Source: Candidatus Staskawiczbacteria bacterium
Lineage (GTDB): Bacteria > Patescibacteriota > Minisyncoccia > Minisyncoccales > Staskawiczbacteraceae
NCBI GenBank assembly: GCA_023245155.1
Contig: JAHFKV010000001.1
Coordinates: forward strand, 203,034-267,033
Direction: 5' to 3'
Length of the DNA: 64,000 nucleotides
This document shows, one piece after another, positions 8,639 to 61,809 of the stretch. The notes under the pieces are model-generated. The model was not told where the DNA came from, ran no database searches, and saw only the letters and a program-made list of their open reading frames with translations. A program made the translations under genes and the position numbers. The stretch's first letter is position 1; each line of letters begins with the position of its first letter.

Positions 8639-10369
8639 ATGAGCGCGAAAAACCAAGAAATCGCCAAAATTTTTAATGAGATTGCGCGTTTTTTGCGTAT
8701 AGAAAACGTACCTTTCAAACCCTATGCTTATGAAAAGGGAGCTGCGTATTTGGAAGCTATGCCAGAAGATGTAAAAGAGATTTATTTAAAGGGTGGCAGA
8801 AAAGCTTTAGAAGAGTTACCTGGGATTGGCAAAGCTATGTCTGAGCATATTGAGGAGTTTGTCAAAACCGGCAAAATCAAGTTTTATCAAGAAATGAAAA
8901 AGAAGCTGCCAGTGGACATGGATGCGCTTTTACGAGTAGAGGGTATGGGGCCAAAAAAGGCCAAAGTATTGTATGAAAAGCTAGAGGTTAAGAATTTGAA
9001 AGATTTAGAAAGAGCAGCTAAGGCAGGGAAGATCGCGCCATTATTTGGCTTTGGCGAGACGACAGAGAAAAATATTTTGCAGGGACTGGAGTTTCTGAAA
9101 ATGAGTAAAGGGCGGGTGTTGCTCCATGAAATTTTGCCGGTGGCGCGGGAAGTTTTAGAGAAATTACGTGCTTTAAAGGATGTTAGGCGCGCGGAAATTG
9201 GCGGTTCGTTGCGTCGTAGAAAAGAAACTATTGGTGATGTGGATTTTTTGGTAGTCAGCAAGAATGCCAAGAAAGTTACGGATTTTTTTGTGAAACTTCC
9301 AGGTGTGCAAAAAGTGTGGGGTCAGGGGAGCACTAAAGCTTCCGTTCATTTGAAAGACGGCTATGATATGGATTTGCGCGTGGTGCCGGAAAAAAGTTAT
9401 GGTTCGGCTCTGCAATATTTCACAGGTAGTCAAGACCACAATATTGCCACTCGTAAAATTGCTATTGAGAAAGGACTTAAATTAAGCGAATGGGGAATTT
9501 TTCGGGGCGCCAAGCAACTTCCTAGTAGAACCGAGGAAGAGGTGTATGATGCTTTGGGAATGGCTTGGGTACCACCAGAAATGCGAGAAAATACGGGTGA
9601 AATTGAATTGGCTCTGGATGGGAAATTGCCCAAGTTGGTTGAATTAAAAGATATTAAAGGGGATTTACACGTGCATTCTGGTTTTACTGATGACACCAAA
9701 GATTCTATTGAGGTACTGGCTAAAAAGGCTATGGAAATGGGGTATGAATATATTGGTATTTCAGACCACACGAATGATTTAAACGTGGAAAAAAGTTTGA
9801 ATGAAAAAGAGTTGCTTAAGGAAAATGAATATATTAAAAAGTTAAACGCGAAATTTTTGGCGCGCGGCAAAAAAATTCGCGTCCTGCATGGCTGTGAAGC
9901 GAATATCCGGCGCGATGGGTCAATTGATGTTAGGGACGAAGTGCTGGAAAAATTAGATTATGTGATTGCGGGCGTGCATTCACTTTTGAAAATGGAGAAA
10001 AAAGAAATGACGGCGCGGATTATCAAAGCCATGAAAAATCCGAATGTAGATATTATTGCTCACCCTACGGGCAGAATTGTCGGCCAGCGAGATGAGTACC
10101 AGCATGATTTTGATGCCATGCTAAAAGCCGCCAAAGAAACAGGAACCATTTTGGAAATTAATTCATCTAGCCGCTTAGATTTACGCGATTTGTATATCAG
10201 GCGCGCCAAAAATTCAGAAGTAAAGATGATTATCAATACCGATGCGCATGCAAAAGAGCAGATGTTGCAAATGGAGTATGGTGTGGCACAGGCAAGGCGA
10301 GGATGGGTGGAAAAAGGTGATATCATCAACACGTTGTCGGTTGAAGAATTATTAAAAAGTTTAAAATAA
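8639..10369 (+). CDS. polX: Family X DNA polymerase with C-terminal PHP domain (PolX)
   Basis: 576 aa. HhH motifs (LPGIGKAMSEHI, VEGMGPKKA), nucleotidyl-transferase GSLRRRKETIGDVDFLV, PHP GDLHVHS...SDH. Confidence 0.9.
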   Translation: MSAKNQEIAKIFNEIARFLRIENVPFKPYAYEKGAAYLEAMPEDVKEIYLKGGRKALEELPGIGKAMSEHIEEFVKTGKIKFYQEMKKKLPVDMDALLRVEGMGPKKAKVLYEKLEVKNLKDLERAAKAGKIAPLFGFGETTEKNILQGLEFLKMSKGRVLLHEILPVAREVLEKLRALKDVRRAEIGGSLRRRKETIGDVDFLVVSKNAKKVTDFFVKLPGVQKVWGQGSTKASVHLKDGYDMDLRVVPEKSYGSALQYFTGSQDHNIATRKIAIEKGLKLSEWGIFRGAKQLPSRTEEEVYDALGMAWVPPEMRENTGEIELALDGKLPKLVELKDIKGDLHVHSGFTDDTKDSIEVLAKKAMEMGYEYIGISDHTNDLNVEKSLNEKELLKENEYIKKLNAKFLARGKKIRVLHGCEANIRRDGSIDVRDEVLEKLDYVIAGVHSLLKMEKKEMTARIIKAMKNPNVDIIAHPTGRIVGQRDEYQHDFDAMLKAAKETGTILEINSSSRLDLRDLYIRRAKNSEVKMIINTDAHAKEQMLQMEYGVAQARRGWVEKGDIINTLSVEELLKSLK

Positions 10370-15308: not shown

Positions 15309-15338
15309 GTCGCACGTCTTCGGATGTGCGACTTTTTT
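15309..15338 (+). terminator. Intrinsic terminator of cassette 2
   Basis: GTCGCACGTC-TTCG-GATGTGCGAC (10-bp stem with one G:U pair, tetraloop), followed by TTTTTT. Confidence 0.75.
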
Positions 15339-15385
15339 ATTTTAAACCTTTAAATTTGGGCTGTTTTGTGATAAAATTTCCCAAT

Positions 15386-16063
15386 ATGCCAAAAGAGAAC
15401 ATAATAATTTCTTTGGGTGGGTCATTGGTGGCGCCAGGGGAAATTGACGTCGCGTTTTTGAGGGTTTTCAAGAAAGCTATTTTAAAGAATACTACCAGCC
15501 AACGGTTTTTTATCTTTGTGGGCGGTGGGAAAATTTGCCGGAACTATCAACATGCTTTGCTGGAATTTGGGGCGGATATCAATGAGAGGGATGTAATGGG
15601 TGTTGATGTTTCAAGATTGAATGCGCGAGTGGTACAGCAACTGTTTGGAGAAGCGGCACATTCGCAAATTATTACCAATCCAACTAAAAAAATTTCTACG
15701 AACAAATATATTATAGTAGCTGCTGGTTGGAAGCCTGGCTGGTCAACGGATTATTGCGCGGTAACGTTGGCCAAAAACATGGGCATTAAAACGATTGTGA
15801 ACCTGACCAACATTGATTATGTGTATGATAAGGATCCGAAAAAGTATCCCAAGGCACAAGCTTTTAAAGAAATTCCCTGGAAAGAGTTTCGAAAGATTGT
15901 GGGAAATAAATGGAGTCCGGGCTTAAGTATGCCCTTTGACCCGCGCGCTTCCCGCCAAGCAGAAGTATTAAAAATAAAAGTAGCCGTCATAAATGGTAAA
16001 AAATTAGATCGCCTGGAGAATTTTTTAAGTAACAAAGCCTTTGTGGGCACAACTATTGTATGA
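15386..16063 (+). CDS. pyrH: UMP kinase, archaeal-type (amino-acid kinase fold)
   Basis: 225 aa from the internal ATG. IIISLGGSLVAP, FVGGGKICRNY, VSRLNARVV, AAGWKPGWSTDYCA, NIDYVYDKDPKKYP. Confidence 0.75.
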   Translation: MPKENIIISLGGSLVAPGEIDVAFLRVFKKAILKNTTSQRFFIFVGGGKICRNYQHALLEFGADINERDVMGVDVSRLNARVVQQLFGEAAHSQIITNPTKKISTNKYIIVAAGWKPGWSTDYCAVTLAKNMGIKTIVNLTNIDYVYDKDPKKYPKAQAFKEIPWKEFRKIVGNKWSPGLSMPFDPRASRQAEVLKIKVAVINGKKLDRLENFLSNKAFVGTTIV

Positions 16064-16947
16064 ACAAAAAAATAACATTGTTGGTGCTTATGGTTCTGAT
16101 TGTTTTAGCAGGAGCTTTATTGTTTTTTTATAAAAATAATATTGCTACCCAGAAATCAGGTGCGCAAAATGAGCCGCAGAACCAACCGGCGGCGTTTTCT
16201 GTGTTGGATGAAAAAGATTATACCGCTTTAACCGGTATGGAAACGTATGAGGTGAAATCTGCAGAATTTAAGGTATATGCCCCTAAAAATACTCTAACTG
16301 CACCAGGATATTTTGAAGTGTACCAAAGTGGCACCAAAGTGTTTGCCAGCGATCCTGATTACTTAATAAGCGGCTTATTATCGTTTGTATTTGGTGATAC
16401 CACCTATGTGGTGGTAAAAGATTATTCAGGTGGCGCCCATTGCTGTGATACCGATTATCTTTTCAGGGTTAACCCCGCCGGCCAGGTGAAACTGATTAAA
16501 ACGTTTGATATAGGCAATGTTACCATCTCAAAAGACAGTTTGCTGTTGAAAAATAACAAACTTTATCTTGTGCTGATTGACGACCGGTTCCAATATTTCC
16601 ACACAGCTTATGTTGACTCATATTTTTTCAATCAATACCTCAGATTAGATGGCGATGCAGTTTATGCGGCCAACCAAGATTTTGCCGAAATAATTGCCAA
16701 AACTGCCCAGGATTGCCGCGCTAAGATTGCTCATGACGCCAGCGATGCTTGGTTGAATGATTTTCTGTGTTATGCTGCCAATTACACCTTAATTGGCAAA
16801 CAAAACACAGCCTTAGAAGACTTTAATGGATTTTTCAATCAGTTTTTTCCAAGCGGAAGCGGTAAAGATTCATTTGGCGAAACTATCCAGCGCGATACAT
16901 TGAAACAAGAAATTATCGAAACGTTACAACATGATCGATTTAATTAA
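16060..16947 (+). CDS. Hypothetical membrane-anchored protein
   Basis: 295 aa with an N-terminal TM helix (ITLLVLMVLIVLAGALLFF). No family recognised. Confidence 0.55.
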   Translation: MNKKITLLVLMVLIVLAGALLFFYKNNIATQKSGAQNEPQNQPAAFSVLDEKDYTALTGMETYEVKSAEFKVYAPKNTLTAPGYFEVYQSGTKVFASDPDYLISGLLSFVFGDTTYVVVKDYSGGAHCCDTDYLFRVNPAGQVKLIKTFDIGNVTISKDSLLLKNNKLYLVLIDDRFQYFHTAYVDSYFFNQYLRLDGDAVYAANQDFAEIIAKTAQDCRAKIAHDASDAWLNDFLCYAANYTLIGKQNTALEDFNGFFNQFFPSGSGKDSFGETIQRDTLKQEIIETLQHDRFN

Positions 16948-31922: not shown

Positions 31923-31955
31923 TCCCGCCAGGCAGCTCTGGCGGGACTTTTTTTT
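31923..31955 (+). terminator. Intrinsic terminator of cassette 4
   Basis: TCCCGCCAG-GCAGCT-CTGGCGGGA (9-bp stem), then C and 8 T residues. Confidence 0.85.
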
Positions 31956-31987: not shown

Positions 31988-34387
31988 ATGATTAAATATA
32001 ATCCAGCTAAAATTGAAAAAAAGTGGCAAAAGAGGTGGTTTACTTCAGGCGTTTTTGAAGCGAAAAACTCTTCAAAAAAGCCAAAGTATTACCTGCTTGA
32101 CGAATTCCCGTATCCTTCGGGAGATGGGCTCCATGTGGGACATTGCCGGCCTTACATTGGTTTAGATGTGATTGCTAGGAAAAGGCGGATGCAGGGTTTC
32201 AATGTGCTTTACCCCATGGGCTGGGATGCTTTTGGCCTGCCTACGGAGAATTACGCGATTAAAAAAGGCGTTCATCCTGCCATAGTAACCAAAAAAAATA
32301 CTGCCAATTTTAAAAAGCAGATGAAAAATTTAGGGCTGTCTTTTGATTGGAGCCGGGAAATAAATACTACTGACCCAAAATATTATACATGGACGCAATG
32401 GATTTTTATCAAGTTGTTTGAAGCGGGAATGGCCTACAAAGATAAAATTAACATTAATTGGTGCCCAAAAGATAAAACGGGTTTGGCGAATGAAGAAGTG
32501 ATTAATGGTTGCTGTGAGCGCTGCGGCACTAAGGTTGAAAAGCGAGAAAAATCCCAGTGGCTGATTAAAATTACCAAATACGCTGATCGGTTAATTGAAG
32601 ATTTATCAAATGTGGATTATCCGGCGCGCGTTAAGGATCAACAAATAAATTGGATTGGCAGGAGCGAGGGAATCAACATTGATTATCAAATTGAAAATAG
32701 TAAAAAAGTTATTTCTGTTTTTACAACAAGACCCGACACTAATTTTGGCGCCACGTTTTTAGTGGTTGCCCCTGATGGAAAGTTTGTAAAAGAAAATGTG
32801 GAAGAGTTTCCTGAAAAAGAAAAAGTGAGAGCCTATGTGAAAGAATCGTTGGCCAAACCGGAAATAGATAGAACTGCAGAGGGCAAGAAAAAAACCGGGG
32901 TACCAACGGGCTGGTATGCTATCAACAACTTAAATGGCAAAAAAATGCCTATTTATGTGGGGGATTTTGTGCTGGGGCAGTTTGGAACCGGCTGCGTGGT
33001 TGGTGTGCCGGGGCACGATGTGCGCGACTTTGAATTCGCTAAAGCAATGGGGCTGGAAATTATCAGGGTGGTAGTGGGTCCCGATGGCGACAAGTCAGAA
33101 ATTACTGACGTAAAGCAAGTCCAGGAAGAAAAGGGAACCATGATAAACAGCGGATTTTTAGATGGCAGAGACATTCATGAAGCTACAAAGGTTATTATGG
33201 ATCATATAGTTGAGAAAGGTTGGGGTAAAAAGATTGTAAATTATAAACTGCGCGATTGGGTTTTTTCACGTCAGCATTATTGGGGCGAGCCGATTCCGAT
33301 GATTTATTGCGCGGCTTGTGGTTGGGTTACAGTTCCAGAAAAAGATTTACCGGTGGCATTGCCAAAAGTTACAAAATATCAGCCCACTGATGATGGCGAG
33401 TCACCCTTGAGTGCGATCGAAAAGTTTGTAAACACCAAATGTCCAAAATGTGGCGGCGCGGCAAAAAGAGAAACTGATACCATGCCAAATTGGGCAGGCT
33501 CTAATTGGTATTTTTTGCGCTACACCGATCCGAAGAATAATAAAAGTTTAGCTGATGAAAAGGTGCTAAAATATTGGATGCCCGTGGATTGGTACAACGG
33601 CGGTATGGAACATACTACGTTACATTTATTGTATTCGCGATTTATCTTTAAATTTTTGTGGGATATTGGGGCGTTACCAAAAGAAATCGGTAATGAACCT
33701 TATAAAAAGAGAACCTCCCATGGTATTGTGCTGGCTGAAGGCGGCGTGAAAATGTCAAAAAGCAAGGGAAATGTAATTAATCCGGATGATGTGGTTAAAG
33801 AATATGGCGCTGATACGTTGCGAGTGTACGAAATGTTTATGGGACCTTTCGAGCAAATGATTCCATGGGATACCAAGGGCATTGTTGGTGCACGCAGGTT
33901 TTTGGAAAAGATTTATATACTGGCGAATAAAAAAGTTGCTACAAAAAGCAGCCAGGATTTGGCATTAGCTTTAAACAAAACTATCAAAAAAGTATCGGAG
34001 GATATTGAGCTGATGAAGTTTAATACGGCAATAAGTGCCATGATGAGTTTTGTGAATGAATGGTATTCTTCAGAAACGGGATTAGACAAGAAAGACCTGC
34101 AAAAGTTTTTGACAATTTTATCGCCTTTTGCGCCGCATTTGGCTGCCGAATTAGGATTGAAAGAAAGAACATGGCCAACGTATGCAGAAATTCAGGAAGC
34201 TACGGTGATGATGATTGTTTCTGTGAATGGCAAAGTGCGCGATAAAATGGAAATGAAAAGTGGATTAGATCAAAGCCAAGTTGAAGGCTTGGTTTTACAT
34301 ACGCCAAAAATCAAACCATGGCTGGAAGGGAAACAGGTTAAGAAAATCATTTTCGTGCTAAATAAACTGATAAATATAGTCGTATGA
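31988..34387 (+). CDS. leuS: Leucine--tRNA ligase
   Basis: 799 aa. PYPSGDGLHVGH (HIGH), KMSKSKGN, CP1 editing domain. Confidence 0.95.
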   Translation: MIKYNPAKIEKKWQKRWFTSGVFEAKNSSKKPKYYLLDEFPYPSGDGLHVGHCRPYIGLDVIARKRRMQGFNVLYPMGWDAFGLPTENYAIKKGVHPAIVTKKNTANFKKQMKNLGLSFDWSREINTTDPKYYTWTQWIFIKLFEAGMAYKDKININWCPKDKTGLANEEVINGCCERCGTKVEKREKSQWLIKITKYADRLIEDLSNVDYPARVKDQQINWIGRSEGINIDYQIENSKKVISVFTTRPDTNFGATFLVVAPDGKFVKENVEEFPEKEKVRAYVKESLAKPEIDRTAEGKKKTGVPTGWYAINNLNGKKMPIYVGDFVLGQFGTGCVVGVPGHDVRDFEFAKAMGLEIIRVVVGPDGDKSEITDVKQVQEEKGTMINSGFLDGRDIHEATKVIMDHIVEKGWGKKIVNYKLRDWVFSRQHYWGEPIPMIYCAACGWVTVPEKDLPVALPKVTKYQPTDDGESPLSAIEKFVNTKCPKCGGAAKRETDTMPNWAGSNWYFLRYTDPKNNKSLADEKVLKYWMPVDWYNGGMEHTTLHLLYSRFIFKFLWDIGALPKEIGNEPYKKRTSHGIVLAEGGVKMSKSKGNVINPDDVVKEYGADTLRVYEMFMGPFEQMIPWDTKGIVGARRFLEKIYILANKKVATKSSQDLALALNKTIKKVSEDIELMKFNTAISAMMSFVNEWYSSETGLDKKDLQKFLTILSPFAPHLAAELGLKERTWPTYAEIQEATVMMIVSVNGKVRDKMEMKSGLDQSQVEGLVLHTPKIKPWLEGKQVKKIIFVLNKLINIVV

Positions 34388-35127
34388 TTAAAAAAGTGGT
34401 GGTTTCGGCGGCGGGGCATGGCACTCGCATGCTGGAACTTTCAAAAGACAAGCCAAAGCATTTAATTGAAGTGGAACAAAAGCCGTTTTTGGCGTACTTG
34501 TTGGACAATGTTTTTACTGCCGGATACCAAGAGGTTATTTTAGTCGTAGGCTACAAACAAGAAGCCATGCAAGCATTTGTGGCCAGCTACACTTTTGGTG
34601 GTGCGCCGCAAAACATTTCCCTGGTTAGTCAATTTGAAATATTGGGGCCAAAAGAGCAGGGTGACTATGGTACCGCTTGCCCGCTCAAATGCGTTAAAGA
34701 ACAGGTGAAGGGCGAAGATTTTATTTCTTTGGTGGGCGATAATTTTTATACGGTGGAAGATTTAAAAGCCATGGATAAAGATGATGCATTTTGCTATGTT
34801 GCCGGGCGAGTGGAGGAACATCCCGAAAAGTTTGGGGTGTTAATAGAAAATGGTCAATTTTTGAAAGAAATTATTGAAAAACCTAAAACGTTTGTGGGGA
34901 ATTTGGTAAATACCAGTTTGTATAAATTTACGCCGGATGTGTTTGAAAAATTGCCGTTAATTGGCAAATCGGTGCGTGGTGAATATGAAATTACGGATGT
35001 TATCTCGCTTTTGGCTAAAGATGGTAAAGTGAAAATAGTAACAACGAAAAATTACTGGATGGATTTTGGCCGGCCGGAGGATATTGAAAAATTCCAAGGT
35101 TATTTGAAAGATGAAAAATCTAAATAA
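34384..35127 (+). CDS. Sugar-phosphate nucleotidyltransferase
   Basis: 247 aa. N-terminal AAGHGTRM (GxGTR) and K.KPK.LI.V signature. Confidence 0.8.
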   Translation: MIKKVVVSAAGHGTRMLELSKDKPKHLIEVEQKPFLAYLLDNVFTAGYQEVILVVGYKQEAMQAFVASYTFGGAPQNISLVSQFEILGPKEQGDYGTACPLKCVKEQVKGEDFISLVGDNFYTVEDLKAMDKDDAFCYVAGRVEEHPEKFGVLIENGQFLKEIIEKPKTFVGNLVNTSLYKFTPDVFEKLPLIGKSVRGEYEITDVISLLAKDGKVKIVTTKNYWMDFGRPEDIEKFQGYLKDEKSK

Positions 35128-35657: not shown

Positions 35658-36905
35658 ATGCCAAAACTCTCAAAACAAGATACGCAAATTGCAAAATTGA
35701 TAGACTTGGAAGCGAAGCGGCAAAAGGAGTCGCTACAGATGATTGCTTCGGAAAATCATTGCTCGCCGGCGGTGCGGGAAGCTTTGGGCAGTGTTTTGAC
35801 GGATAAATATGCTGAAGGATATCCGGGCAAAAGATATTATGGCGGAAATCAATATATTGATATGGTGGAAAATATTTGTATTGATAGGGCAAAAAAGTTA
35901 TTTGGTGTGGAGCATGTGAATGTGCAGCCGCATTCGGGTTCGCCAGCCAACGCTGCAGTGTATGTGGCAACCTGCTTGCCTGGGGAGACGATTATGGGAT
36001 TGGCTTTGCCCATGGGTGGGCATTTAACACATGGCACCAAAATCAGTTTTGGCGGAAAGTTTTTTAATGCGGTGCAATATGCGGTGGATGAAAAAACCCA
36101 TTTAATTAATTATGATACGCTGGCAAAAATGGTTTTGGAACATAAGCCAAAACTTATTTGGGTGGGTGCGACGGCGTACCCACGATTTTTTGATTGGAAG
36201 AAGCTAGGCGAAATTGCGGATTCTGTTGGCGCCTATTTAGCCGCTGATATTGCGCACATTGCTGGCTTGGTTGCAGGAGGCGCACATCCAAGTCCTGTGC
36301 CCTACGTACACATTGTAACCACTACTACGCACAAAACATTGCGCGGTCCGCGCGGTGGTATGATTATGGTAACAGCCAAAGGTTTAAAGAAAGATGCAGA
36401 ATTGCCCAAGAAAATTGATAAAGCCGTTTTTCCAGGGCTTCAAGGCGGGCCACATGAAAATGCCATTGCCGCCATTGCTGTTTGCTTGAAAGAAGCTTCG
36501 GCGCCAGCGTTTAAAACATATGCTAAGCAAATTGTAAAAAATGCTAAGACGTTGGCGGAGGAGTTAAAAAAATATGGGTTTATATTAATGAGTGGCGGTA
36601 CGGATAATCATTTAATGGTGATCGATTTGAGAAATAAAAACATCACGGGAGCCGAGGCACAGGATTTGCTGGAAAGCGCGGGGATAAGTGCCAACAGAAA
36701 TAGTATTCCGTATGACCCGGCTGGCCCATTTAAGCCATCGGGAATTCGCTTGGGAACTCCAGCCATTACCACTCGCGGTATGAAAGAAAAAGAAATGAAA
36801 CTGATTGCGGGATGGATTGATGAAGTTATTTCAAATCCTTCTAAGGCTAAAAAAATAGCGCAGGAAGTTAAGAAATTATGCAAGAAATTCCCACTTCCAA
36901 AATAG
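35658..36905 (+). CDS. glyA: Serine hydroxymethyltransferase
   Basis: 415 aa. LQMIASENH, GYPGKRYYGG, and the PLP site TTTTHKTLRGPRGG. Confidence 0.95.
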   Translation: MPKLSKQDTQIAKLIDLEAKRQKESLQMIASENHCSPAVREALGSVLTDKYAEGYPGKRYYGGNQYIDMVENICIDRAKKLFGVEHVNVQPHSGSPANAAVYVATCLPGETIMGLALPMGGHLTHGTKISFGGKFFNAVQYAVDEKTHLINYDTLAKMVLEHKPKLIWVGATAYPRFFDWKKLGEIADSVGAYLAADIAHIAGLVAGGAHPSPVPYVHIVTTTTHKTLRGPRGGMIMVTAKGLKKDAELPKKIDKAVFPGLQGGPHENAIAAIAVCLKEASAPAFKTYAKQIVKNAKTLAEELKKYGFILMSGGTDNHLMVIDLRNKNITGAEAQDLLESAGISANRNSIPYDPAGPFKPSGIRLGTPAITTRGMKEKEMKLIAGWIDEVISNPSKAKKIAQEVKKLCKKFPLPK

Positions 36906-37399
36906 ATTTACAGGTGTTTAACCTGATTAACGGTTTTGCGAAAAAATCCAGGGTTCTGGATTTTTTCGCTGTGTTCTGCGCAGAATATTTGGGCTATCTT
37001 TTTGCTGGTATTTTATTGGTGCTAGCCTTCTGGTTTGGCCGGTGGCAATTGTTTGTTGAGCCATTAGCGGCGGGGTTTTTAGCCAGATGCAGTAATGAAA
37101 TAGTATATCTTTTTTACCAACGTAAAAGGCCAATGGAAGTTTTGCCCATTACCACATTAATAAAAAAACCGAACCATCCGGCCTTTCCCTCTGGCCATAC
37201 CTCATTCTTTTTTGCAGCTTCATTTTGCTTGCTACTGTTTAGTACCCAATTGGCGATACTATTTTTAGCGGCAAGTGCTCTTGTTGGATTTTTCAGGGTA
37301 TTTTGCGGAGTCCATTGGCCTAGCGATATTTTGGGCGGAATCGGTGCCGGTTTCATTTCTTTTTTGATGCTAATGTGTTTGATAACAATAATCTTGTAA
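36878..37399 (+). CDS. PAP2 family lipid phosphate phosphatase
   Basis: 173 aa. RKRP, PSGHTS, RVFCGVHWPSD (R-x5-H-x3-D). Confidence 0.8.
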   Translation: MQEIPTSKIDLQVFNLINGFAKKSRVLDFFAVFCAEYLGYLFAGILLVLAFWFGRWQLFVEPLAAGFLARCSNEIVYLFYQRKRPMEVLPITTLIKKPNHPAFPSGHTSFFFAASFCLLLFSTQLAILFLAASALVGFFRVFCGVHWPSDILGGIGAGFISFLMLMCLITIIL

Positions 37400-37414
37400 G
37401 AGTTATTCCAATCC

Positions 37415-38026
37415 ATGGATACAAATTTCCATTATTTTGCACCAGGTGAACATGCTGTATATAAAAAGATAAGAAAATTACGGGACTTTTTAGTTCATTT
37501 TTTAGTGAAAATCTTCACGTTGTTAAAAATAACACCCAACATGGTTACGTTGGCCAGCTTTCTTTGTATCTTATTTTTTGTGTATTTTTGCGTGCGTAAT
37601 CCATTAGTCGCTTTATTTTTTCTTGGTTTTCATATGATTCTTGACGGTATCGATGGGCCATTTGCCAGATTGACTAATCGGGCAAATTCTGCGGGGGCAT
37701 TCCTTGATATGCTTAATGACCATACGGGTTTGGTTATTGTGATGGGATCATTGGTATTTTACTCCCTATTAAATCTTGTTATTGGTTTGATATACATATA
37801 TCTTTATTCTTTGCTCGTGATTTTCCTGGTACTGCGCAATATGCTTGGAATACATCCAGCATTCACACTAAGGACCAAACATGTGCCGTATCTTACGTAC
37901 GTTCTATGGGCAGTTACGGCTATAAATATTTTTGATAAGATAATGATAGTATGTATTATTATCACCTTAATTCCGTTGACGGAAAGCTTGCGTGCACTTC
38001 TCCGTTTTTTAAAAGATACAAAATAG
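37415..38026 (+). CDS. CDP-alcohol phosphatidyltransferase family protein
   Basis: 203 aa. Exact DG-x2-AR-x8-G-x3-D-x3-D motif (DGPFARLTNRANSAGAFLDMLND). Multi-pass membrane protein. Confidence 0.8.
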   Translation: MDTNFHYFAPGEHAVYKKIRKLRDFLVHFLVKIFTLLKITPNMVTLASFLCILFFVYFCVRNPLVALFFLGFHMILDGIDGPFARLTNRANSAGAFLDMLNDHTGLVIVMGSLVFYSLLNLVIGLIYIYLYSLLVIFLVLRNMLGIHPAFTLRTKHVPYLTYVLWAVTAINIFDKIMIVCIIITLIPLTESLRALLRFLKDTK

Positions 38027-38029
38027 CAT

Positions 38030-38572
38030 ATGTATAGTATTTACCAAATCATAGGAGTTTTTTGGCTTTTACTTCCAGCTGGTGTTTCCAATATGATGCC
38101 AGTTTTTGTGAAAGGGGTTGACGTTCTTAATTATCCCATTGATCATGGCCTGAAATTTGGTGGTAAAGAACTGCTGGGGCCCAATAAAACATGGCGGGGA
38201 CTTTTCTTCGGGACTATTGCGGGCATTATAGTAGTATATATCCAAGTTTTTCTGTATCCTTATGTCCAAAAATATGCTCTGTTGGATTATTCTGCTATCA
38301 GTCCTTTAGCCATAGGATTTTTACTGGGGTTCGGGGCTTTAGCTGGTGATAGTGTGAAAAGTTTTTTTAAAAGGCGGACGGGCATTCAACCTGGCAAAAC
38401 ATGGTGGGTTTTTGATCAAATAGACTGGATCGTGGGGGCATTTGTTTTTCTTGCACTCTATCATGTGTTCGGATTACACGTGTATGTTACCGGAATAATT
38501 CTGATGGGAATTTTGCACCCGGCAATAAATATAATTGGATATGTGTTAGGAATAAAAAAGAATGTTTTTTAA
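38030..38572 (+). CDS. CDP-archaeol synthase (CarS, DUF46) family CTP-transferase homologue
   Basis: 180 aa. WLLLPAGVSN..PV, PID.G..F.GKELLGPNKTWRG, GALAGDSVKSFFKRR.G, DQIDW, HPAINIIGY. These motifs are co-linear with archaeal CarS (A. fulgidus sequence recalled from memory). Confidence 0.7.
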   Translation: MYSIYQIIGVFWLLLPAGVSNMMPVFVKGVDVLNYPIDHGLKFGGKELLGPNKTWRGLFFGTIAGIIVVYIQVFLYPYVQKYALLDYSAISPLAIGFLLGFGALAGDSVKSFFKRRTGIQPGKTWWVFDQIDWIVGAFVFLALYHVFGLHVYVTGIILMGILHPAINIIGYVLGIKKNVF

Positions 38573-38577
38573 CTTTT

Positions 38578-39312
38578 ATGAAAATTATAACTTGGAATAT
38601 TTATAAAAAGAATAAAAATATCCCTAAAGCAGTGGCTTTTTTGAAAAAACAAAAGGCTGACATTATTTGCCTTCAGGAATTTCCCGATACCCATCTTGAT
38701 TTGATCAGGAACTTCGTGGGTCACGTGGCCATGTGCGAAGAAGTGTGGATTTATAAAGACAATCGCAGGCAGGCAACCAGATTGTACACCGTTATCATTT
38801 CCAAATTCCCCATTAAGCAGCACGTTATTATCCCCCACAAAAACACCTATGGGCACATCAGCCGGTATAAGCATTTCCAGGCTGATTCTTCCTATATTGA
38901 CATTGATGCCCCAGAAGGGTTATTCAGGGTTTTTAACTCGCACTTTAAGTGTGTGACGGGGCCCTTGCATAGGCTTTTTCAGTTTGAAGAAGTGGTTGGC
39001 CACTTAAGCCCCGAGAGACACAATATTATTTGCGGCGATTTCAATACTTTCGGCAAACCGCTGGTGAACATCTTTTTATGGAAACTGTTTGGATACAAAA
39101 CCCATGAAATTGCCATTAATGAGAATAAAAATCTGGCCAAGATGTTGAGCGCCTATGGTTTACAAAATCCGCTGCAGCGGCAGGTTACCTTTTGGAAGTT
39201 TCCCGTTCAGTTAGATTATATTTTGGTGCCCGCGCACGTTGAGGTTAAAAAAAAGCGGGCATTTTCAAGGCCGCATGGGTCAGACCACTTTCCCTTGATG
39301 TTGGAGATATGA
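38578..39312 (+). CDS. Endonuclease/exonuclease/phosphatase (EEP) family protein
   Basis: 244 aa. MKIITWNI, ADIICLQEF, GDFN, GSDHFPL. Confidence 0.8.
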   Translation: MKIITWNIYKKNKNIPKAVAFLKKQKADIICLQEFPDTHLDLIRNFVGHVAMCEEVWIYKDNRRQATRLYTVIISKFPIKQHVIIPHKNTYGHISRYKHFQADSSYIDIDAPEGLFRVFNSHFKCVTGPLHRLFQFEEVVGHLSPERHNIICGDFNTFGKPLVNIFLWKLFGYKTHEIAINENKNLAKMLSAYGLQNPLQRQVTFWKFPVQLDYILVPAHVEVKKKRAFSRPHGSDHFPLMLEI

Positions 39313-39317
39313 TATTG

Positions 39318-39401
39318 TGCCCGAGGTGGGAGTTGAACCCACATGAGATTACTCTCGCGGGATTTTGAGTCCCGTGCGTCTGCCAATTCCGCCACCCGGG
39401 C
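39318..39401 (-). tRNA. tRNA-Leu (anticodon CAA), type II with long variable arm
   Basis: Minus strand reads GCCCGGGTGGCGGAATTGGCAGACGCACGGGACTCAAAATCCCGCGAGAGTAATCTCATGTGGGTTCAACTCCCACCTCGGGCA. Acceptor, anticodon loop CTCAAAA and T-arm GTGGG-TTCAACT-CCCAC all fold. CCA is not encoded. Confidence 0.9.
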
Positions 39402-41503: not shown

Positions 41504-42595
41504 TTATGATGTTTTATTATTTTTTAAAATATTATAGTAAATTTTTTCATATTCCTCTGCCATTTTTTTTGCTGTAAATTCTTTTTGAACATGTGCTCTG
41601 CAGTTAAAACTCATTTTTTCGTATTCATCACTGGGCATGGCGGCTATTTTTTTTACCGCCGTTATTATAGCCCCCATATTATCTTTCTCTATAATAAAAC
41701 CAGTTTCTCCATGCTTTATGATTTCTGATACGCTGCCTCGGTCAAAAGTGATTACCGGTTTTCCAGAAGCCATGGCTTCAATAAAAACAAGGCCAAAAGG
41801 TTCTTCCCATTGGATGGGCGAAATTAAAGCAATTGCGTTTTTTAAAAAATCGCTTTTTTCCCTTGGTCCCACTTCTCCTAAAAATTGGATTTGTTGGCCA
41901 TCAATCAGTGGCTTAATTTCTTTTTCAAAATAATCTTTATCACTTGTGGATTTTGCAGCTATTTTTAATGTTACGCCCGCCTCTTTTGCAATAAGGATTG
42001 CTTCCTTAATTCCTTTTTCTGGAGATGTTCTACCTAAAAATGCAAAGTAATTTCCTTTTTCTTTTGAAAATTCATATTTATTTAGATCAATACCATTGTA
42101 AACGTTTCCAATATAATTTAAATCAGACATACCATTCCTTTGGCTGTTTGATATTGAAACATAGTTAGCTTTTTTAAAGTTTTCGTAAATTACTTTACTA
42201 TACTTGTTGTAAAATCCAATAGGGGCGTGAAGTGTAGTTATCATAGGAGGCTTAATGATATCAATAAATGGTACAATCATGGTTCCACAGTGATTGTGTA
42301 CAATATCAACCTCTAAATTATTAAGATACTTTAAAATTCTTCCTGCGCACAGTAAGTTCATTTTTTCTTCCCACTTTTGATCATGGTTTTCTGGATACTG
42401 GCGGAAATTTTGAGGCAGAATCGGTAACAATTCAGCGCTTGTGTTTGAGTTTCCCGTTGCTAAAAGATATACCTTGTGGCCTTTTTTGACCAGTTCCTCA
42501 CTTAGGTTATAGGCTACAAATTCTATCGCACCGAATTTTTCTGGTGGAACAGATTCATATAGCGGAGATATTATCGCTATTTTTAATTTTTTCAT
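41504..42595 (-). CDS. Glycosyltransferase family 4 (GT-B fold)
   Basis: 363 aa. EPFGLVFIEAMASGKPVI signature. AT-rich. Confidence 0.85.
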   Translation of the reverse strand: MKKLKIAIISPLYESVPPEKFGAIEFVAYNLSEELVKKGHKVYLLATGNSNTSAELLPILPQNFRQYPENHDQKWEEKMNLLCAGRILKYLNNLEVDIVHNHCGTMIVPFIDIIKPPMITTLHAPIGFYNKYSKVIYENFKKANYVSISNSQRNGMSDLNYIGNVYNGIDLNKYEFSKEKGNYFAFLGRTSPEKGIKEAILIAKEAGVTLKIAAKSTSDKDYFEKEIKPLIDGQQIQFLGEVGPREKSDFLKNAIALISPIQWEEPFGLVFIEAMASGKPVITFDRGSVSEIIKHGETGFIIEKDNMGAIITAVKKIAAMPSDEYEKMSFNCRAHVQKEFTAKKMAEEYEKIYYNILKNNKTS

Positions 42596-57978: not shown

Positions 57979-58215
57979 ATGAAAATCCAAATAGTTAAAA
58001 ATAAATATCTCAATGCAGTTTTAATTTTAATGCTGGTTTCGGCCATTGCTCATATGGCTATTCTTTTCTGGATTGCCATTATTACGGCTAATATCCATGT
58101 GCTTAACTATTTTGACATTTTGAATTTGGGCGCAGGTCCTTCTTTTGATATTCCTTCTTTTGTGTTCGTGCTCTTCTTGTATGGTGGCATTCTTTATTTC
58201 AATGAAAAACACTGA
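57979..58215 (+). CDS. Small hypothetical membrane protein
   Basis: 78 aa from the internal ATG, with two or three hydrophobic helices. Overlaps the next gene by 14 nt. Confidence 0.4.
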   Translation: MKIQIVKNKYLNAVLILMLVSAIAHMAILFWIAIITANIHVLNYFDILNLGAGPSFDIPSFVFVLFLYGGILYFNEKH

Positions 58216-59032
58216 GCATAAAGAAATCATTATTAACGGCCGCAAGGTGCTCTATTTTGAACGGGGTAACCCTGCCCACTCCACGATGGTGTTACTTCAC
58301 GGATACCCGGGTAGTTATGAACACCTCATGGATTTCGCGGATGCATTGGGTAGTAATTTCCATATTATTATTCCCAATTTCCCTTCTTGCGGAGGATCAG
58401 AGCCCATGAACCAAGCTCATACGTTAGAGCATTTTACAGCTTGGCTGGGTGTATTTTTGCAGGAGGTCCAGGCAAGAAATTTCGTGTTGGTCGGTCATTC
58501 ATTCGGTTCCCGGGTGGCGCTATCGTATGCGGTCCGTTGGCCCAAAGAAATAAAGCGTCTTGTGCTGATTACGCCGGTACTCAAAGCTGACAGCGTGTTT
58601 GTATATGTGGTACTGCTTAAGTATAAAATTGCCAAACTTTTGCCCGCTTCAGCTAAAAAAGCTTTTCTAGCCAGCAAGCTCTATGAATATATGGCCTGCA
58701 AAATTGTGTTACAATCAAGAAATCCAAGGCTTCGTAAAGAAATCATCGGCCGCGGGTTTGGCGAATTGGTAAATGTATATCCGGATGTTCACATTGAACT
58801 GTTTGAAGAATTTTATCAGTCTGATTTGACAGTTCTCGCTAAAAAACTGGCCGTGCCAACCCTGGTGATGGCGGGGAGTAAAGACCAAGTAGCTACAGTA
58901 GCATCTGTTAAGCTGTTTACCAGGGCAGCCAAGAATATATCCTTAAAAATAATAACGGGAGCTGGGCACTTAGTGCCATTTGAACGGCCTCGGGCAGTAG
59001 CTAATCTTATTAAAGCGTGGCTTAATCGGTAA
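58202..59032 (+). CDS. Alpha/beta hydrolase
   Basis: 276 aa from the internal ATG. HGYPGS oxyanion region, GHSFGS nucleophile elbow, C-terminal GAGHL. Confidence 0.8.
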   Translation: MKNTEHKEIIINGRKVLYFERGNPAHSTMVLLHGYPGSYEHLMDFADALGSNFHIIIPNFPSCGGSEPMNQAHTLEHFTAWLGVFLQEVQARNFVLVGHSFGSRVALSYAVRWPKEIKRLVLITPVLKADSVFVYVVLLKYKIAKLLPASAKKAFLASKLYEYMACKIVLQSRNPRLRKEIIGRGFGELVNVYPDVHIELFEEFYQSDLTVLAKKLAVPTLVMAGSKDQVATVASVKLFTRAAKNISLKIITGAGHLVPFERPRAVANLIKAWLNR

Positions 59033-59035
59033 TCT

Positions 59036-59944
59036 ATGATATTTTCTTGGGTCATTATCATTGTTTTCTCCTACTTGTTTTTTGCGTTGGCGGCTTTCGG
59101 GGACAAGTTGGTGCTTTCTGGTTCACCCAACCAAAAGTCCTATGCTTTTTACGTGGGAGTTTTAGGTATCTGTGTGGTTTTTTTAATTCCGTTTGCGGGT
59201 TTGGGGTTACCTGCTTTGCCGGTCTTAGCTTGGATTTTTTTAGATGCTTTAGCCTACATTCTGGCCATTTACACCATGTTTTCAGCCCTGGAAACCTTTG
59301 ATGTTTCCCGCGTGGTGCCCGCAATTGGAGCTGTACAACCCATATTTACGTTTATCATCACCTGGTTGTTGTTTGGCCCGCAGGTGTTTCAGCCTATCCA
59401 CATGCTAGCATTTGCCATTTTGCTGGTTGGCGGATTTGTCATTTCCATGGGAAAAACGTTTTCCATTCACGGAAGATATTTGAAACTAACCCTGTTTTCT
59501 TCGCTGATGTTTTCTTGTGACTATGTGTTTTCTAAAATGGTGTTTTTACATATGCCTTTCTTGCAGGGGTTAATTTGGATCAGGATTTTTTGTTTTGGCC
59601 TGGCTTTGCTGCTTTTGTTTGATAAGAAGCTGCGCCAAGAAGTATTCAGCCGGCACCACATGGTCAAGCCCAAAACTCAGTTGTTTATTTTATCAGCCCA
59701 AGCCTCAGGCGCGGTAGCGGGGATTTTACAAAGCTTGGCTATTGCGATTGTCCCGGTGAGCTATTTGGCTATTATGAACGCTTTGCGTGGTGTGCAGTAT
59801 GTGTTTTTGTTTCTGATTACCCTGGGATTTTCCTGGTTGTTTCCGCGTTTACTAAAGGAGGAATTTTCCCAGCGGGCCATCATCCAAAAAGTCTGTTCTA
59901 TCGTCCTGATTTTTATAGGCTTGGCCATGTTATTTTTGAATTAA
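59036..59944 (+). CDS. EamA/DMT superfamily transporter
   Basis: 302 aa with about 10 hydrophobic helices in two similar halves. Confidence 0.65.
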   Translation: MIFSWVIIIVFSYLFFALAAFGDKLVLSGSPNQKSYAFYVGVLGICVVFLIPFAGLGLPALPVLAWIFLDALAYILAIYTMFSALETFDVSRVVPAIGAVQPIFTFIITWLLFGPQVFQPIHMLAFAILLVGGFVISMGKTFSIHGRYLKLTLFSSLMFSCDYVFSKMVFLHMPFLQGLIWIRIFCFGLALLLLFDKKLRQEVFSRHHMVKPKTQLFILSAQASGAVAGILQSLAIAIVPVSYLAIMNALRGVQYVFLFLITLGFSWLFPRLLKEEFSQRAIIQKVCSIVLIFIGLAMLFLN

Positions 59945-59948
59945 CGGT

Positions 59949-60647
59949 ATGAAATTAAGCATTATCATTCCAGCACTAAACGAAGAGAAGTATTTACCCC
60001 TGTTACTTGAATCAATTAGAATTCAAAGTTTTACTGATTATGAAATCATTGTGGCTGACGCTGGTTCGCACGATGGCACCCTAGACATTGCAAGGAGCTA
60101 TGGTTGCAAAATCGTTTTGGGCGGGCTGCCTGCGGCAGCCCGCAACAGCGGTGCCCGCAGTGCCACAGGCAAATTACTATTATTTTTAGATTCAGATGTG
60201 ATTTTGCCTCCGGGTTTTTTGGAAAGATCTATCGCAGCATTTGAAAGCAGAAATTTAGGCGTGGCCGGATTTTTATTAAAGCCTCTTGACGGAAAAACCG
60301 TTGATACGGCAATCTATTGGGGGCTAGACCAGTTTGTACGGGCAATGCACGGCTGGTTTTACCACGGGGCCAGCGCTATCATGGTTAAAAAAGAGGTTCA
60401 TGAAGACATTAATGGTTTTAATGAGGCGATTACCATGATCGAAGATTATTATTATATGAAAAGTGCGGCAAAAGTTTCCCGGTATGGATACATCCGCCAG
60501 CCCGTTAAAGTTTCCATGCGCCGGTATGAAAAAGACGGAAGATTCACCTATGCAAAATATGCCCTAGCGGCCTTGTATACGCACGTTATTGGCCCCATTA
60601 CCAAAGATATTTTCAATTACCAATTTAACCACTATCATAAGAAATGA
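59949..60647 (+). CDS. Glycosyltransferase family 2
   Basis: 232 aa. LSIIIPALNEE, ADAGS.DGT, LDSD (DxD). Confidence 0.85.
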   Translation: MKLSIIIPALNEEKYLPLLLESIRIQSFTDYEIIVADAGSHDGTLDIARSYGCKIVLGGLPAAARNSGARSATGKLLLFLDSDVILPPGFLERSIAAFESRNLGVAGFLLKPLDGKTVDTAIYWGLDQFVRAMHGWFYHGASAIMVKKEVHEDINGFNEAITMIEDYYYMKSAAKVSRYGYIRQPVKVSMRRYEKDGRFTYAKYALAALYTHVIGPITKDIFNYQFNHYHKK

Positions 60648-61039
60648 AAAATCTTGTTACATACTTTTGGTGGGCGGTTACTTTTTTGGGCACACTAGTC
60701 ATTTACCTAGTTTTTTTTGCGGTCCCCTCGTGGCGATTCGTAGTAATTATCGCCAGTGTGGAGATTATCTGTTGGGGGATTAAAGTTTTTTACAAAAAAG
60801 ACCGGCCCATCCCGTATCCCCGTACCAATCTCTATTCCTATATCGACGCCAATAGTTTTCCTAGCATTCATACCGCCCGTGCCGCAGCCGTAGGAATATG
60901 GTTATTCGGCCCATTAGGATTGGCTCTGGCGGCAGTGATAGGTTACTCTAGGATTTTTTTGAAAAAACATTATACTATTGATGTGGTGGCTGGCGCGATG
61001 ATTGGCGCCCTTATTTCCACCCTCATGCTATGTTTATGA
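60644..61039 (+). CDS. PAP2 family phosphatase
   Basis: 131 aa. KKDRP, PSIHTA, SRIFLKKHYTID (SR-x5-H-x3-D). Confidence 0.8.
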   Translation: MKNLVTYFWWAVTFLGTLVIYLVFFAVPSWRFVVIIASVEIICWGIKVFYKKDRPIPYPRTNLYSYIDANSFPSIHTARAAAVGIWLFGPLGLALAAVIGYSRIFLKKHYTIDVVAGAMIGALISTLMLCL

Positions 61040-61809
61040 AAATAACCGAATGGCTCACCTTATTTAAATTCAGATATCACGTTACCTTTATCCTGGTGAT
61101 TCTGGGAGCTTTATTATTCGCCCCGTTTACCTACGCCCTGTTTGCTAATCTGATTGTCGTGTATCTTTCCTTCAATGTGCTTTTGTATGGAGGGCTGTAT
61201 ATATTAAACGACTTAGCTGATATTGAAAACGATAAAAAACACCCGCAAAAAAGGTTCCGACCCTTGCCCGCGGGTAAAATCACCCCCAAGGTTGCGTTCA
61301 TATTGTCTCTTGGTTGCGTCATCTTGGGCCTGGCCATAAGCTATTTCACGTTTGGCACCCTAATTTTTGCTTTATGCGTACTATTTATTGTAGCCAATCA
61401 GTTTTATACCCGGCTTGCCAAAAAAGTTCCTTACCTTGAAATTTTCGCCAATGCCATAACTCATCCCATGCGGTTTTTGCTCGGAGTTTTGCTGGTGGGA
61501 GCTGTTATCCCATATGTGTTGGTTGCCGCTTTGTTTATGCTGGCAATCGGCTTTGCTTGTGTGCGCCGCGTCATAGAACTGCGCGCCCGCGGTGAAAATT
61601 CCAGAAAGGTGTTGAAGTATTATTCTCTAAAAAGTTTGGCAACGGTCATGGTAATTGCTTTTTTTGCCATGATATTCATGGCCATTATTAATTATCCTAT
61701 GTATAGTATCGCATATGCAGTCATGGCAGGAGTATATGTAATTTGTGTTTTCGGTATTTATGTTTCCACACCTGTTTCAAGAGCCTTTGAATGGGTGTGG
61801 TTGAACTAA
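61030..61809 (+). CDS. UbiA family prenyltransferase, decaprenyl-phosphate phosphoribosyltransferase-like
   Basis: 259 aa, multi-pass. NDLADIENDKKHPQKRFRPLPAGKI (NDxxDxxxD plus HP.KR.RP..AG, as in the DPPR-synthase subgroup). Confidence 0.75.
   Translation: MFMKITEWLTLFKFRYHVTFILVILGALLFAPFTYALFANLIVVYLSFNVLLYGGLYILNDLADIENDKKHPQKRFRPLPAGKITPKVAFILSLGCVILGLAISYFTFGTLIFALCVLFIVANQFYTRLAKKVPYLEIFANAITHPMRFLLGVLLVGAVIPYVLVAALFMLAIGFACVRRVIELRARGENSRKVLKYYSLKSLATVMVIAFFAMIFMAIINYPMYSIAYAVMAGVYVICVFGIYVSTPVSRAFEWVWLN

Follow-up and report, generated by a model that had tools for sequence, protein, structure and literature searches.

Introduction

Archaeal CarS and the CdsA-type enzymes use a lipid phosphomonoester to attack CTP (PMC9385802). 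Bacteria belonging to the Candidate Phyla Radiation (CPR; Patescibacteria) lack lipid synthesis, yet they have ordinary fatty-acid membranes, and fatty-acid lipids were found in CPR-enriched fractions (PMC7242380). For Saccharibacteria, a lipid salvage route has been predicted in which acquired phosphatidic acid is converted through CDP-diacylglycerol to phosphatidylglycerol, cardiolipin, or phosphatidylinositol (Starr et al., 2018; PMC6031116), and a 2024 perspective states that mechanisms of lipid uptake and breakdown in Patescibacteria have not been identified (PMC11665869). The CarS family, its fold, and its chemistry are already known, and CPR copies are labelled in databases; our literature search found no paper that links CarS with CPR or Patescibacteria. 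Here we describe a block of four genes that includes a CarS homologue, located at 36878-39312 in a 64,000-nucleotide stretch of a Candidatus Staskawiczbacteria contig (JAHFKV010000001.1), which is called the window below. We conclude that this block is probably a module for synthesis of polar head groups through a CDP-activated lipid in a CPR bacterium.

Results

A CarS-family protein in a compact gene block

The four open reading frames (ORFs) lie on the + strand at the coordinates given by an earlier annotation of this DNA (the initial annotation) and are separated by gaps of 15, 3, and 5 nt (Table 1). The PAP2 phosphatase and the endonuclease/exonuclease/phosphatase (EEP)-family phosphoesterase named there were borne out by matches to PF01569 and PF03372, and the PF01864 search proposed as a check of the CarS-like ORF returned a strong match. 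All of the CarS/DUF46 motifs that had been listed are present in its translation (FWLLLPAG, YPIDHG, GPNKTWRG, GDSVKSFFKRRTG, and DQIDW). The PF01864 match is near full length (profile positions 5-172 of 175), and the protein scores 146.4 bits on the NCBIfam CarS equivalog NF003114, 1.6 bits below its cut-off of 148. By comparison, the CdsA family PF01148 gave a weak match confined to profile positions 143-230 of 264 (32.3 bits), and the CdsA equivalog NF008635 gave 19.1 bits against a cut-off of 385; that is, neither a full-length match to CdsA nor a score at equivalog level was found.

The sole structure in the PDB matched by sequence was Aeropyrum pernix CarS (ApCarS; 5GUF, E 1e-16). An AlphaFold2 (AF2) model built on 20 relatives had a mean predicted local distance difference test score (pLDDT) of 92 and contained five long helices, corresponding to five predicted transmembrane helices; among PDB folds, 5GUF was again the only significant match, with template-modelling (TM) scores of 0.74/0.83, a root-mean-square deviation of 2.9 Å, and 31% identity. 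Among 83 aligned sequences, 21 columns were at least 95% conserved, and 19 of these are identical in ApCarS and kept in the window protein. The shared near-invariant residues include K53, T54, G57, D107, S111, K114, R115, D129, Q130, and D132 (window numbering); the polar ones match the motifs of the CTP/metal site, with roles that are predicted from conservation. In this set, the bacterial and archaeal sequences are not cleanly divided by any alignment column, and an enrichment of domain-specific residues in the lipid-groove helix had a p value of 0.02 or 0.20, depending on the helix limits chosen. On sequence and modelled structure, the assignment of this ORF to the CarS family is solid, and homology, fold, and conserved active-site columns point to CTP:lipid-phosphate cytidylyltransferase activity.

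The window belongs to a bacterium of the CPR/Patescibacteria. It contains bacterial markers (tmRNA adjoining SmpB, IF3, FtsA, FtsZ, a Mur ligase, and ComEC) and further genes (L20, RecO, RuvA, UvrB, DprA, and signal peptidase I), and the CarS, transferase, and EEP proteins have their nearest named relatives in metagenome-assembled genomes of Candidatus Staskawiczbacteria, Sungbacteria, and the 'Patescibacteria group'. This CarS protein is on record for two contigs, 661,750 and 429,282 bp in length.

CarS homologues are widespread in CPR bacteria and DPANN archaea

CarS homologues had been described in the initial annotation as rare in bacteria. This view did not hold for CPR: when one genome per GTDB species was counted, at least 564 encoded CarS relatives, and NCBI names the relatives at 49-58% identity, CPR proteins included, 'CDP-archaeol synthase'. 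In an exhaustive HMMER search of 1.84 billion cluster representatives, 1,865 clusters passed E <= 1e-3, 916 of them also passing E <= 1e-10. By record title, the best 80 of the at least 564 relatives comprised 42 bacterial and 38 archaeal loci. Nearly all of the bacterial loci were labelled as CPR (Sungii-, Peregrini-, Sacchari-, Levyi-, Dojka-/WS6, Falkow-, and Parcubacteria) or fell in well-supported clades with these; the archaeal loci were labelled as DPANN (Woese-, Pace-, and Nanoarchaeota) or grouped with DPANN sequences. Third-party labels such as 'uncultured Gammaproteobacteria' and 'Methanosarcinales' look wrong below the domain level, and the sequences so labelled group with Patescibacteria in the first case and with Woesearchaeota in the second, in well-supported clades.

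Identity of the window protein to named archaeal relatives (Nanoarchaeia and Thorarchaeota) was 44-51%, and to the DPANN loci 38-51%. In a neighbour-joining tree of 83 sequences, each clade with bootstrap support of at least 70 was purely bacterial or purely archaeal; the deep nodes were unresolved and ApCarS stood on a long branch, such that the number and direction of transfers between the domains cannot be read from this tree. These relationships show one poorly resolved radiation of CPR and DPANN sequences.

A CDP-alcohol transferase is the recurrent partner of CarS

The gene directly upstream of the CarS-like gene encodes a CDP-alcohol phosphatidyltransferase. The DG-x2-AR-x8-G-x3-D-x3-D motif that the initial annotation had called perfect was confirmed in the translation, where DGIDGPFARLTNRANSAGAFLDMLND (residues 77-102) is a perfect D-x2-D-G-x2-A-R-x8-G-x3-D-x3-D, and the protein matches PF01066 (Table 1). 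A profile of 13 relatives ranked the phosphatidylinositol-phosphate synthase (PIPS) of Renibacterium salmoninarum first among PDB entries (5D92, E 2.7e-11), followed by AF2299 (1.4e-9), mycobacterial PIPS (6e-8), CPT1 (1e-5), PgsA (1e-4), and PssA (6e-3). By this profile and by NCBIfam, the transferase ranks nearest to the (archaetidyl/phosphatidyl)inositol-phosphate synthases. Public gene calls start this ORF 42 codons late, which gives a 161-aa protein, and omit the PAP2 ORF in favour of a 100-aa ORF on the reverse strand without a Pfam match. We take the longer PAP2 and transferase ORFs to be the correct ones because conserved orthologues show them; for the transferase in particular, relatives conserve its N-terminal 42 residues, which supports the 203-aa start.

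Profile searches of about 10 kb on either side of CarS in the best 80 of the at least 564 loci found a CDP-alcohol transferase in 57 of them (32 bacterial and 25 archaeal); in 56 of the 80 it lay within 4 kb. Less frequent neighbours were a PHP-type phosphoesterase (22 loci; 14 bacterial, 8 archaeal), phosphatidylserine decarboxylase (13, all archaeal), a YegS-type lipid kinase (7; 5 bacterial, 2 archaeal), the divergent PAP2 protein DUF212 (6, all archaeal), myo-inositol-1-phosphate synthase (5, all bacterial), an EEP protein (5; 2 bacterial, 3 archaeal), and a HAD phosphatase (5; 4 bacterial, 1 archaeal). The transferase and CarS domains are also found fused in two natural proteins (P0170 and P0203), one of them on a contig beside the bacterial genes rnpA and yidD. 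With these counts and fusions, the claim of the initial annotation that CarS and the CDP-alcohol transferase belong to one module was upheld, and we regard the coupling of the predicted activities as well supported.

The type of transferase beside CarS varies. Levyibacteriota and related CPR loci (L020 6729-10558; L056, L025, L028, L070, L035, and L069) contain a compact CarS cluster with myo-inositol-1-phosphate synthase, a transferase resembling archaetidylinositol-phosphate synthase (AIPS) and PIPS, a PHP phosphoesterase, and a YegS-type lipid kinase. The Levyibacteriota transferase scores 137.6 bits on the AIPS model, and on paper the cluster would be a complete route from diacylglycerol to phosphatidylinositol. 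In Saccharimonadales the order is transferase-PHP-CarS; in a Falkowbacteria locus CarS is paired with a PgsA-like transferase, and in a Woesearchaeota locus the transferase resembles PssA/archaetidylserine synthase and is accompanied by phosphatidylserine decarboxylase. In one relative, transferase-CarS is followed by an MFS transporter. Because of these varied partners and the fusions, CarS appears to behave as a general supplier of CDP-activated lipid to different head-group transferases.

Three further fusions join CarS to phosphatases: PAP2 in P0200 and DUF212 in P0278 and P0286. Together with the neighbourhoods, they appear to tie PAP2-type phosphatases to the CarS pathway.

Multi-domain CarS proteins were recorded for the five fusions named above and for P0268, as well as in loci L088 and L089, and a 380-aa protein carries an N-terminal CarS domain followed by about 200 residues without assignment. 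A small protein (about 170 aa, multi-pass membrane type, no Pfam match) was present in 17 of the 38 DPANN loci and in no bacterial locus; it lies within about 1.5 kb of CarS and often adjoins it (e.g., L063 10520-11023, - strand).

PAP2 and EEP phosphoesterases flank the transferase-CarS pair

The first protein of the block is predicted to be an integral-membrane lipid-phosphate phosphatase of the PAP2 superfamily. Among PDB sequences, it matches the lipid phosphatase LpxE best (6EBU, E 5.8e-9). The protein has the motifs PSGH and R-x5-H-x3-D; in place of K-x6-RP, the first motif, it has YQRKRP, in which the lysine spacing is not canonical. The last protein is a soluble, metal-dependent phosphoesterase of the EEP family, and its catalytic residues are intact: the EEP-type positions N7, E34, D154, N156, D213, D236, and H237 show no or almost no variation among 33 relatives. 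Its AF2 model (pLDDT 93) gave 192 PDB fold matches at E <= 0.001 with EEP enzymes on top. The top matches were generic (Tdp2, ExoIII, Crc, nocturnin, and uncharacterised EEP proteins, at TM scores of about 0.65 and about 15% identity), and no sphingomyelinase-like or inositol-phosphatase-like signal was found among the PDB matches of the model.

The arrangement of the block recurs in parts. Another Staskawiczbacteria contig (L087) has PAP2-superfamily, transferase, CarS, and EEP genes in the same order as the window, and a Sungiibacteriota genome (L002) has transferase-CarS-EEP. The EEP gene thus adjoins CarS in the window, L087, and L002, and in L003 and L046 the two genes are within about 2 kb of each other. 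Two further loci (L082 and L083) encode EEP orthologues at 66-70% identity with a PAP2 orthologue (53%) directly upstream that overlaps the EEP gene by 4 nt. Because PAP2-EEP and transferase-CarS each recur in relatives, there are two recurrent pairs, and in the window the second is nested between the members of the first. Together with the PAP2+CarS fusion, these loci make the placement of PAP2 and EEP in the same module, as first annotated, plausible. On L087, a GH18 gene follows the block.

A proposed route to polar head groups

In the proposed pathway, the CarS-family enzyme would join CTP to the phosphomonoester of a phosphatidic-acid-type lipid, releasing pyrophosphate and forming CDP-diradylglycerol. 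The CDP-alcohol transferase would then pass the phosphatidyl group to a polyol phosphate. Because the transferase ranks closest to the PIPS and AIPS enzymes, myo-inositol-1-phosphate would be the most likely acceptor, with glycerol-3-phosphate as an alternative. Finally, the membrane PAP2 protein, the soluble EEP protein, or both would dephosphorylate the phosphorylated product, taking the slot held by PHP or HAD phosphatases beside CarS in other CPR bacteria. The first two steps are suggested by homology and strong genomic context, and the third by context. Since CPR bacteria lack fatty-acid and phospholipid synthesis, the backbone would most likely be a bacterial diacyl lipid acquired from a host or the surroundings, which is a candidate substrate; under this reading, an archaeal-type CarS would do the job of CdsA.

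The initial annotation had also proposed head-group work on salvaged lipids, which fits the contexts of CarS in other CPR lineages, but in the order dephosphorylation, CTP activation, and attachment of a new head group. This order is chemically backwards because the cytidylyltransferase needs the lipid phosphate, and prior dephosphorylation would destroy its substrate (PMC9385802). A phosphatase would fit better after the transferase step. True head-group exchange would, in addition, need regeneration of phosphatidic acid, for example by cleavage of the phospholipase D type or by phospholipase C plus a kinase, and the window was found to hold no gene of this kind; lipid kinases adjoin CarS in other CPR bacteria. 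Overall, the protein families and the coupling that had been annotated stood, whereas the rarity of CarS in bacteria and the reaction order did not.

A Pfam search of every non-nested ORF of at least 100 aa, supplemented by a precomputed list, found no cdsA, plsC, plsY, glycerol-1-phosphate (G1P) dehydrogenase, GGGPS, or DGGGPS gene in the 64-kb window, in agreement with the absence of cdsA, plsC, and G1P dehydrogenase noted earlier. One correction is that a UbiA-family ORF does occur. It was rejected as a DGGGPS (22 bits, compared with 89.8 bits, below cut-off, on decaprenyl-phosphate phosphoribosyltransferase). A 295-aa ORF after pyrH was likewise rejected as a diverged CdsA, having one N-terminal hydrophobic segment and no Pfam match.

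Weighing of alternative explanations

Several observations count against parts of this proposal. The PAP2 protein also resembles undecaprenyl-diphosphate phosphatases, which are the best of its weak NCBIfam matches (PgpB being another), and could instead have a function in the cell wall. For the EEP model, the matches to nucleases, Tdp2, and nocturnin are about equally good, and none points specifically to a lipid enzyme. The PAP2-EEP pairs of L082 and L083 have no transferase or CarS gene within 5 kb, and L086 has the transferase-CarS pair without PAP2 or EEP. Moreover, the block forms the last four of eight co-directional genes, which start with leucyl-tRNA synthetase (LeuRS), an NTP-transferase, TsaC/Sua5, and serine hydroxymethyltransferase (SHMT) and have junctions that overlap or almost abut. 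All of this would agree with a functional unit limited to the transferase and CarS, in which the PAP2 protein recycles the cell-wall carrier as an undecaprenyl-diphosphate phosphatase, the EEP protein acts on nucleic acids or other non-lipid phosphoesters, and both are neighbours of unrelated genes such as TsaC/Sua5 and SHMT through tight genome packing. We consider this explanation unlikely, given the PAP2+CarS and DUF212+CarS fusions, the presence of EEP beside or near CarS in five separate lineages that include bacteria and archaea, and the PAP2-superfamily gene that again stands upstream of transferase-CarS-EEP in L087. A further point against the proposed module is the L087 gene itself (294-1436, + strand), which encodes a 380-aa PAP2_3/PAP2 protein that is not orthologous to the window PAP2. 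The PAP2_3 family also holds inositol-phosphoryl transferases such as Aur1, and the L087 protein may therefore not be a simple phosphatase. The acceptor assigned to the transferase is a lean rather than a call because the scores lie far under the equivalog cut-offs: its best NCBIfam match, AIPS, gave 54.9 bits (cut-off 180), and the PIPS equivalog gave 28 bits (cut-off 170). There is also no inositol-1-phosphate synthase in the 64-kb window, and myo-inositol-1-phosphate is thus weakly suggested as the acceptor. Finally, the absence of cdsA holds for the 64 kb of the window, which makes up less than a tenth of a contig at least 661 kb long.

The lipid substrate has to be weighed as well. Characterised archaeal CarS strongly prefers the unsaturated isoprenoid lipid digeranylgeranylglyceryl phosphate (DGGGP) over phosphatidic acid, and CarS of Archaeoglobus fulgidus (AfCarS) does not complement an Escherichia coli cdsA mutant, such that activity on diacyl phosphatidic acid cannot be assumed; work with crude membranes suggested that chain type outweighs ether or ester linkage and backbone chirality (PMC9385802). 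Because characterised CarS enzymes are isoprenoid-selective and CPR membranes contain fatty acids, either this CarS clade can work on acyl chains or these bacteria deal with ether lipids. The window protein could accordingly be a true CDP-archaeol synthase that activates DGGGP or archaetidic acid, self-made or obtained from an archaeal partner. Besides the chain selectivity, this possibility is favoured by the near-threshold CarS equivalog score, the identity to archaeal and DPANN relatives, the absence of an alignment column that divides the domains cleanly, other archaeal-type genes in the window such as that for UMP kinase, and the report of one Parcubacteria genome with GGGPS and DGGGPS homologues (PMC7852524). 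We regard it as quite improbable in view of the fatty-acid lipids of CPR-enriched fractions (PMC7242380), the lack of G1P dehydrogenase, GGGPS, and DGGGPS genes in the 64-kb window, where the UbiA-family ORF is not a DGGGPS, and the YegS-type lipid kinases and inositol-1-phosphate synthase that adjoin CarS in CPR loci. The weak, partial PF01148 match raises one more explanation, namely that the CarS-like protein is a CTP-dependent lipid kinase that phosphorylates polyprenol or diacylglycerol, with the neighbouring PAP2 protein closing a cycle of phosphorylation and dephosphorylation. PF01148 also includes CTP-dependent dolichol and phytol kinases. We give this explanation very little credence: the CarS match is far stronger (107 compared with 32 bits), near full length, and confirmed by the fold; a CDP-alcohol transferase, whose substrate must be CDP-activated, is the near-constant partner; and some loci have a separate YegS-type lipid kinase adjoining CarS. 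A head-group module that works through a CDP-activated, probably diacyl, lipid remains our preferred interpretation.

Other features of the window

The base composition of the block is not unusual. Its PAP2 ORF overlaps the SHMT stop codon by 28 nt, and a convergent tRNA-Leu gene comes after the block (Table 1). A terminator scan gave one convincing hairpin, a strong one upstream of LeuRS, and a promoter scan gave 18 promoter-like sites compared with 21.7 in shuffled sequences, i.e., no excess. A perfect inverted repeat (GCGAAAAAATCCAG GGTT CTGGATTTTTTCGC) lies 33 nt past the SHMT stop, within the 5' part of the PAP2 coding region, and is not followed by a T-run; it may act in transcript processing or attenuation between SHMT and the lipid genes, or have arisen by chance.

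Table 1. Positions of the block genes and of other features in the window
Feature	Position	Strand	Length	Evidence or remark
PAP2	36878-37399	+	173 aa	PF01569, E 2.9e-16, 59.9 bits (cut-off 27.2)
CDP-alcohol phosphatidyltransferase (CDP-OH_P_transf)	37415-38026	+	203 aa	PF01066, E 6.8e-14, 53 bits (cut-off 22)
CarS-like	38030-38572	+	180 aa	PF01864, E 1.1e-30, 107.3 bits (cut-off 22)
EEP (Exo_endo_phos)	38578-39312	+	244 aa	PF03372, E 2.9e-15, 57.1 bits (cut-off 24.5)
Inverted repeat	36938-36969	+		14-bp arms, 4-nt loop
ORF in public gene calls	37114-37416	-	100 aa	no Pfam match
tRNA-Leu	39317-39401			convergent with the block
Terminator-like hairpin	31923-31946			terminator scan
Sugar-1-phosphate nucleotidyltransferase	34384-35127	+		three genes upstream of the block
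GT4 glycosyltransferase	41504-42595	-		7FG9/8X3U, E 8e-76, 258 bits
Alpha/beta hydrolase	58145-59032			directly upstream of second lipid-related block
EamA-like 9-TM protein	59036-59944	+		second lipid-related block
GT2 glycosyltransferase	59949-60647	+		second lipid-related block
Small PAP2 phosphatase	60644-61039	+		second lipid-related block; second PAP2 of the window
UbiA-family prenyltransferase	61030-61809	+		second lipid-related block; closest to decaprenyl-phosphate phosphoribosyltransferase, 89.8 bits
UMP kinase	15326-16063	+		TIGR02076 (pyrH_arch), 195.4 bits (cut-off 158)
ORF after pyrH	16060-16947		295 aa	no Pfam match
Family-X DNA polymerase	8639-10369	+		with PHP domain
ORF at window edge	1-2439	+	812 aa	no Pfam match

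The sugar-1-phosphate nucleotidyltransferase upstream of the block shows its greatest similarity to the N-terminal half of archaeal GlmU-type enzymes (163.6 bits, below cut-off). In Levyibacteriota locus L025 (2727-4278), a homologue comes after a second CDP-alcohol transferase, an arrangement that recalls CDP-inositol-type enzymes. An assignment of the GT4 glycosyltransferase as a PimA-type phosphatidylinositol mannosyltransferase was not supported, the PimA match reaching only E 5e-8; its best PDB match, titled 'Glycosyl transferase', is far closer than PimA, BshA, or MshA. A second lipid-related block of four genes (59036-61809, + strand) contains the UbiA-family ORF, and we take its layout to recall the mycobacterial Rv3806c/Rv3807c polyprenyl-phospho-sugar pair. 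The UMP kinase is of archaeal type, scoring 49.7 bits on the bacterial pyrH model (cut-off 243.9), and is another archaeal-type gene in this bacterial genome. A family-X DNA polymerase and a long ORF at the window edge were also recorded (Table 1).

Discussion

The block and its relatives offer candidate enzymes for the building and tailoring of CPR membranes: CarS-type activation, a PIPS-like transferase, phosphatases, and, in some lineages, a lipid kinase and inositol-1-phosphate synthase. A wider proposal, which we put forward tentatively, is that CarS-type enzymes rather than CdsA could be the CDP-lipid synthases of many CPR bacteria, acting on host-derived diacyl phosphatidic acid, while the same clade serves lipid-scavenging DPANN archaea on ether lipids, with PAP2/DUF212, PHP, and EEP proteins as terminal phosphatases. 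If this were true, one archaeal-type family, possibly promiscuous for chains, would underlie a shared pathway of salvage and new head-group attachment in both radiations of ultra-small symbionts; the lipid divide would be crossed at the activation step, and the phosphatases would be the long-missing terminal enzymes of the pathway. Should the CarS-type enzyme accept diacyl lipids, a signature enzyme of archaea would hold a bacterial job across much of bacterial diversity, and 'CDP-archaeol synthase' annotations in metagenomes would be unsafe as evidence of archaeal lipids. Should it accept only ether lipids, some CPR bacteria would handle archaeal lipids, which would be more surprising still.

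Compared with archaeal CarS (AfCarS and ApCarS, 5GUF), the window protein shares the family PF01864, a length of about 180 aa, the five-helix fold (TM 0.74-0.83), the motifs G-x2-K-T, G-D-x3-S-F-x-K-R, and D-Q-x-D, and CDP-alcohol phosphatidyltransferases as genomic partners. It differs in its bacterial host, in the absence of archaeal core-lipid genes from the window, and in its distance from ApCarS (a long branch and only 31% identity), and its candidate substrate may be diacyl rather than an isoprenoid ether; its score likewise stays 1.6 bits short of the equivalog cut-off. CdsA proteins have about 270 aa and nine helices. In contrast, the window protein has 180 aa and five helices and matches PF01148 partially. 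It resembles CdsA (PF01148; Thermotoga maritima, 4Q2E) in superfamily, in the reaction of CTP with a lipid phosphomonoester to give a CDP-lipid (PMC9385802), and in its proposed cellular role, which would equal that of CdsA in ordinary bacteria.

The inositol-phosphate route of actinobacteria and archaea, which consists of inositol-1-phosphate synthase, a PIP or AIP synthase (5D92 and 6H53), and a phosphatase, is similar in that the window transferase is nearest to these synthases, that Levyibacteriota relatives carry the whole set beside CarS, and that a phosphatase is needed after the transferase, for which the block holds candidates. It is dissimilar in that the window scores lie below the equivalog cut-offs, that the window has no inositol-1-phosphate synthase, that a CarS-type enzyme, not a CdsA-type one, would supply the CDP-lipid donor, and that the phosphatase candidates are PAP2 and EEP proteins rather than the PHP type of other CPR clusters. 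The salvage route predicted for Saccharibacteria (PMC6031116) agrees with our proposal in that a CPR bacterium unable to make fatty acids would convert acquired phosphatidic acid. It differs in naming a 'putative phosphatidate cytidylyltransferase' that was not identified as CarS-type, whereas the enzyme predicted here for this step belongs to the CarS family.

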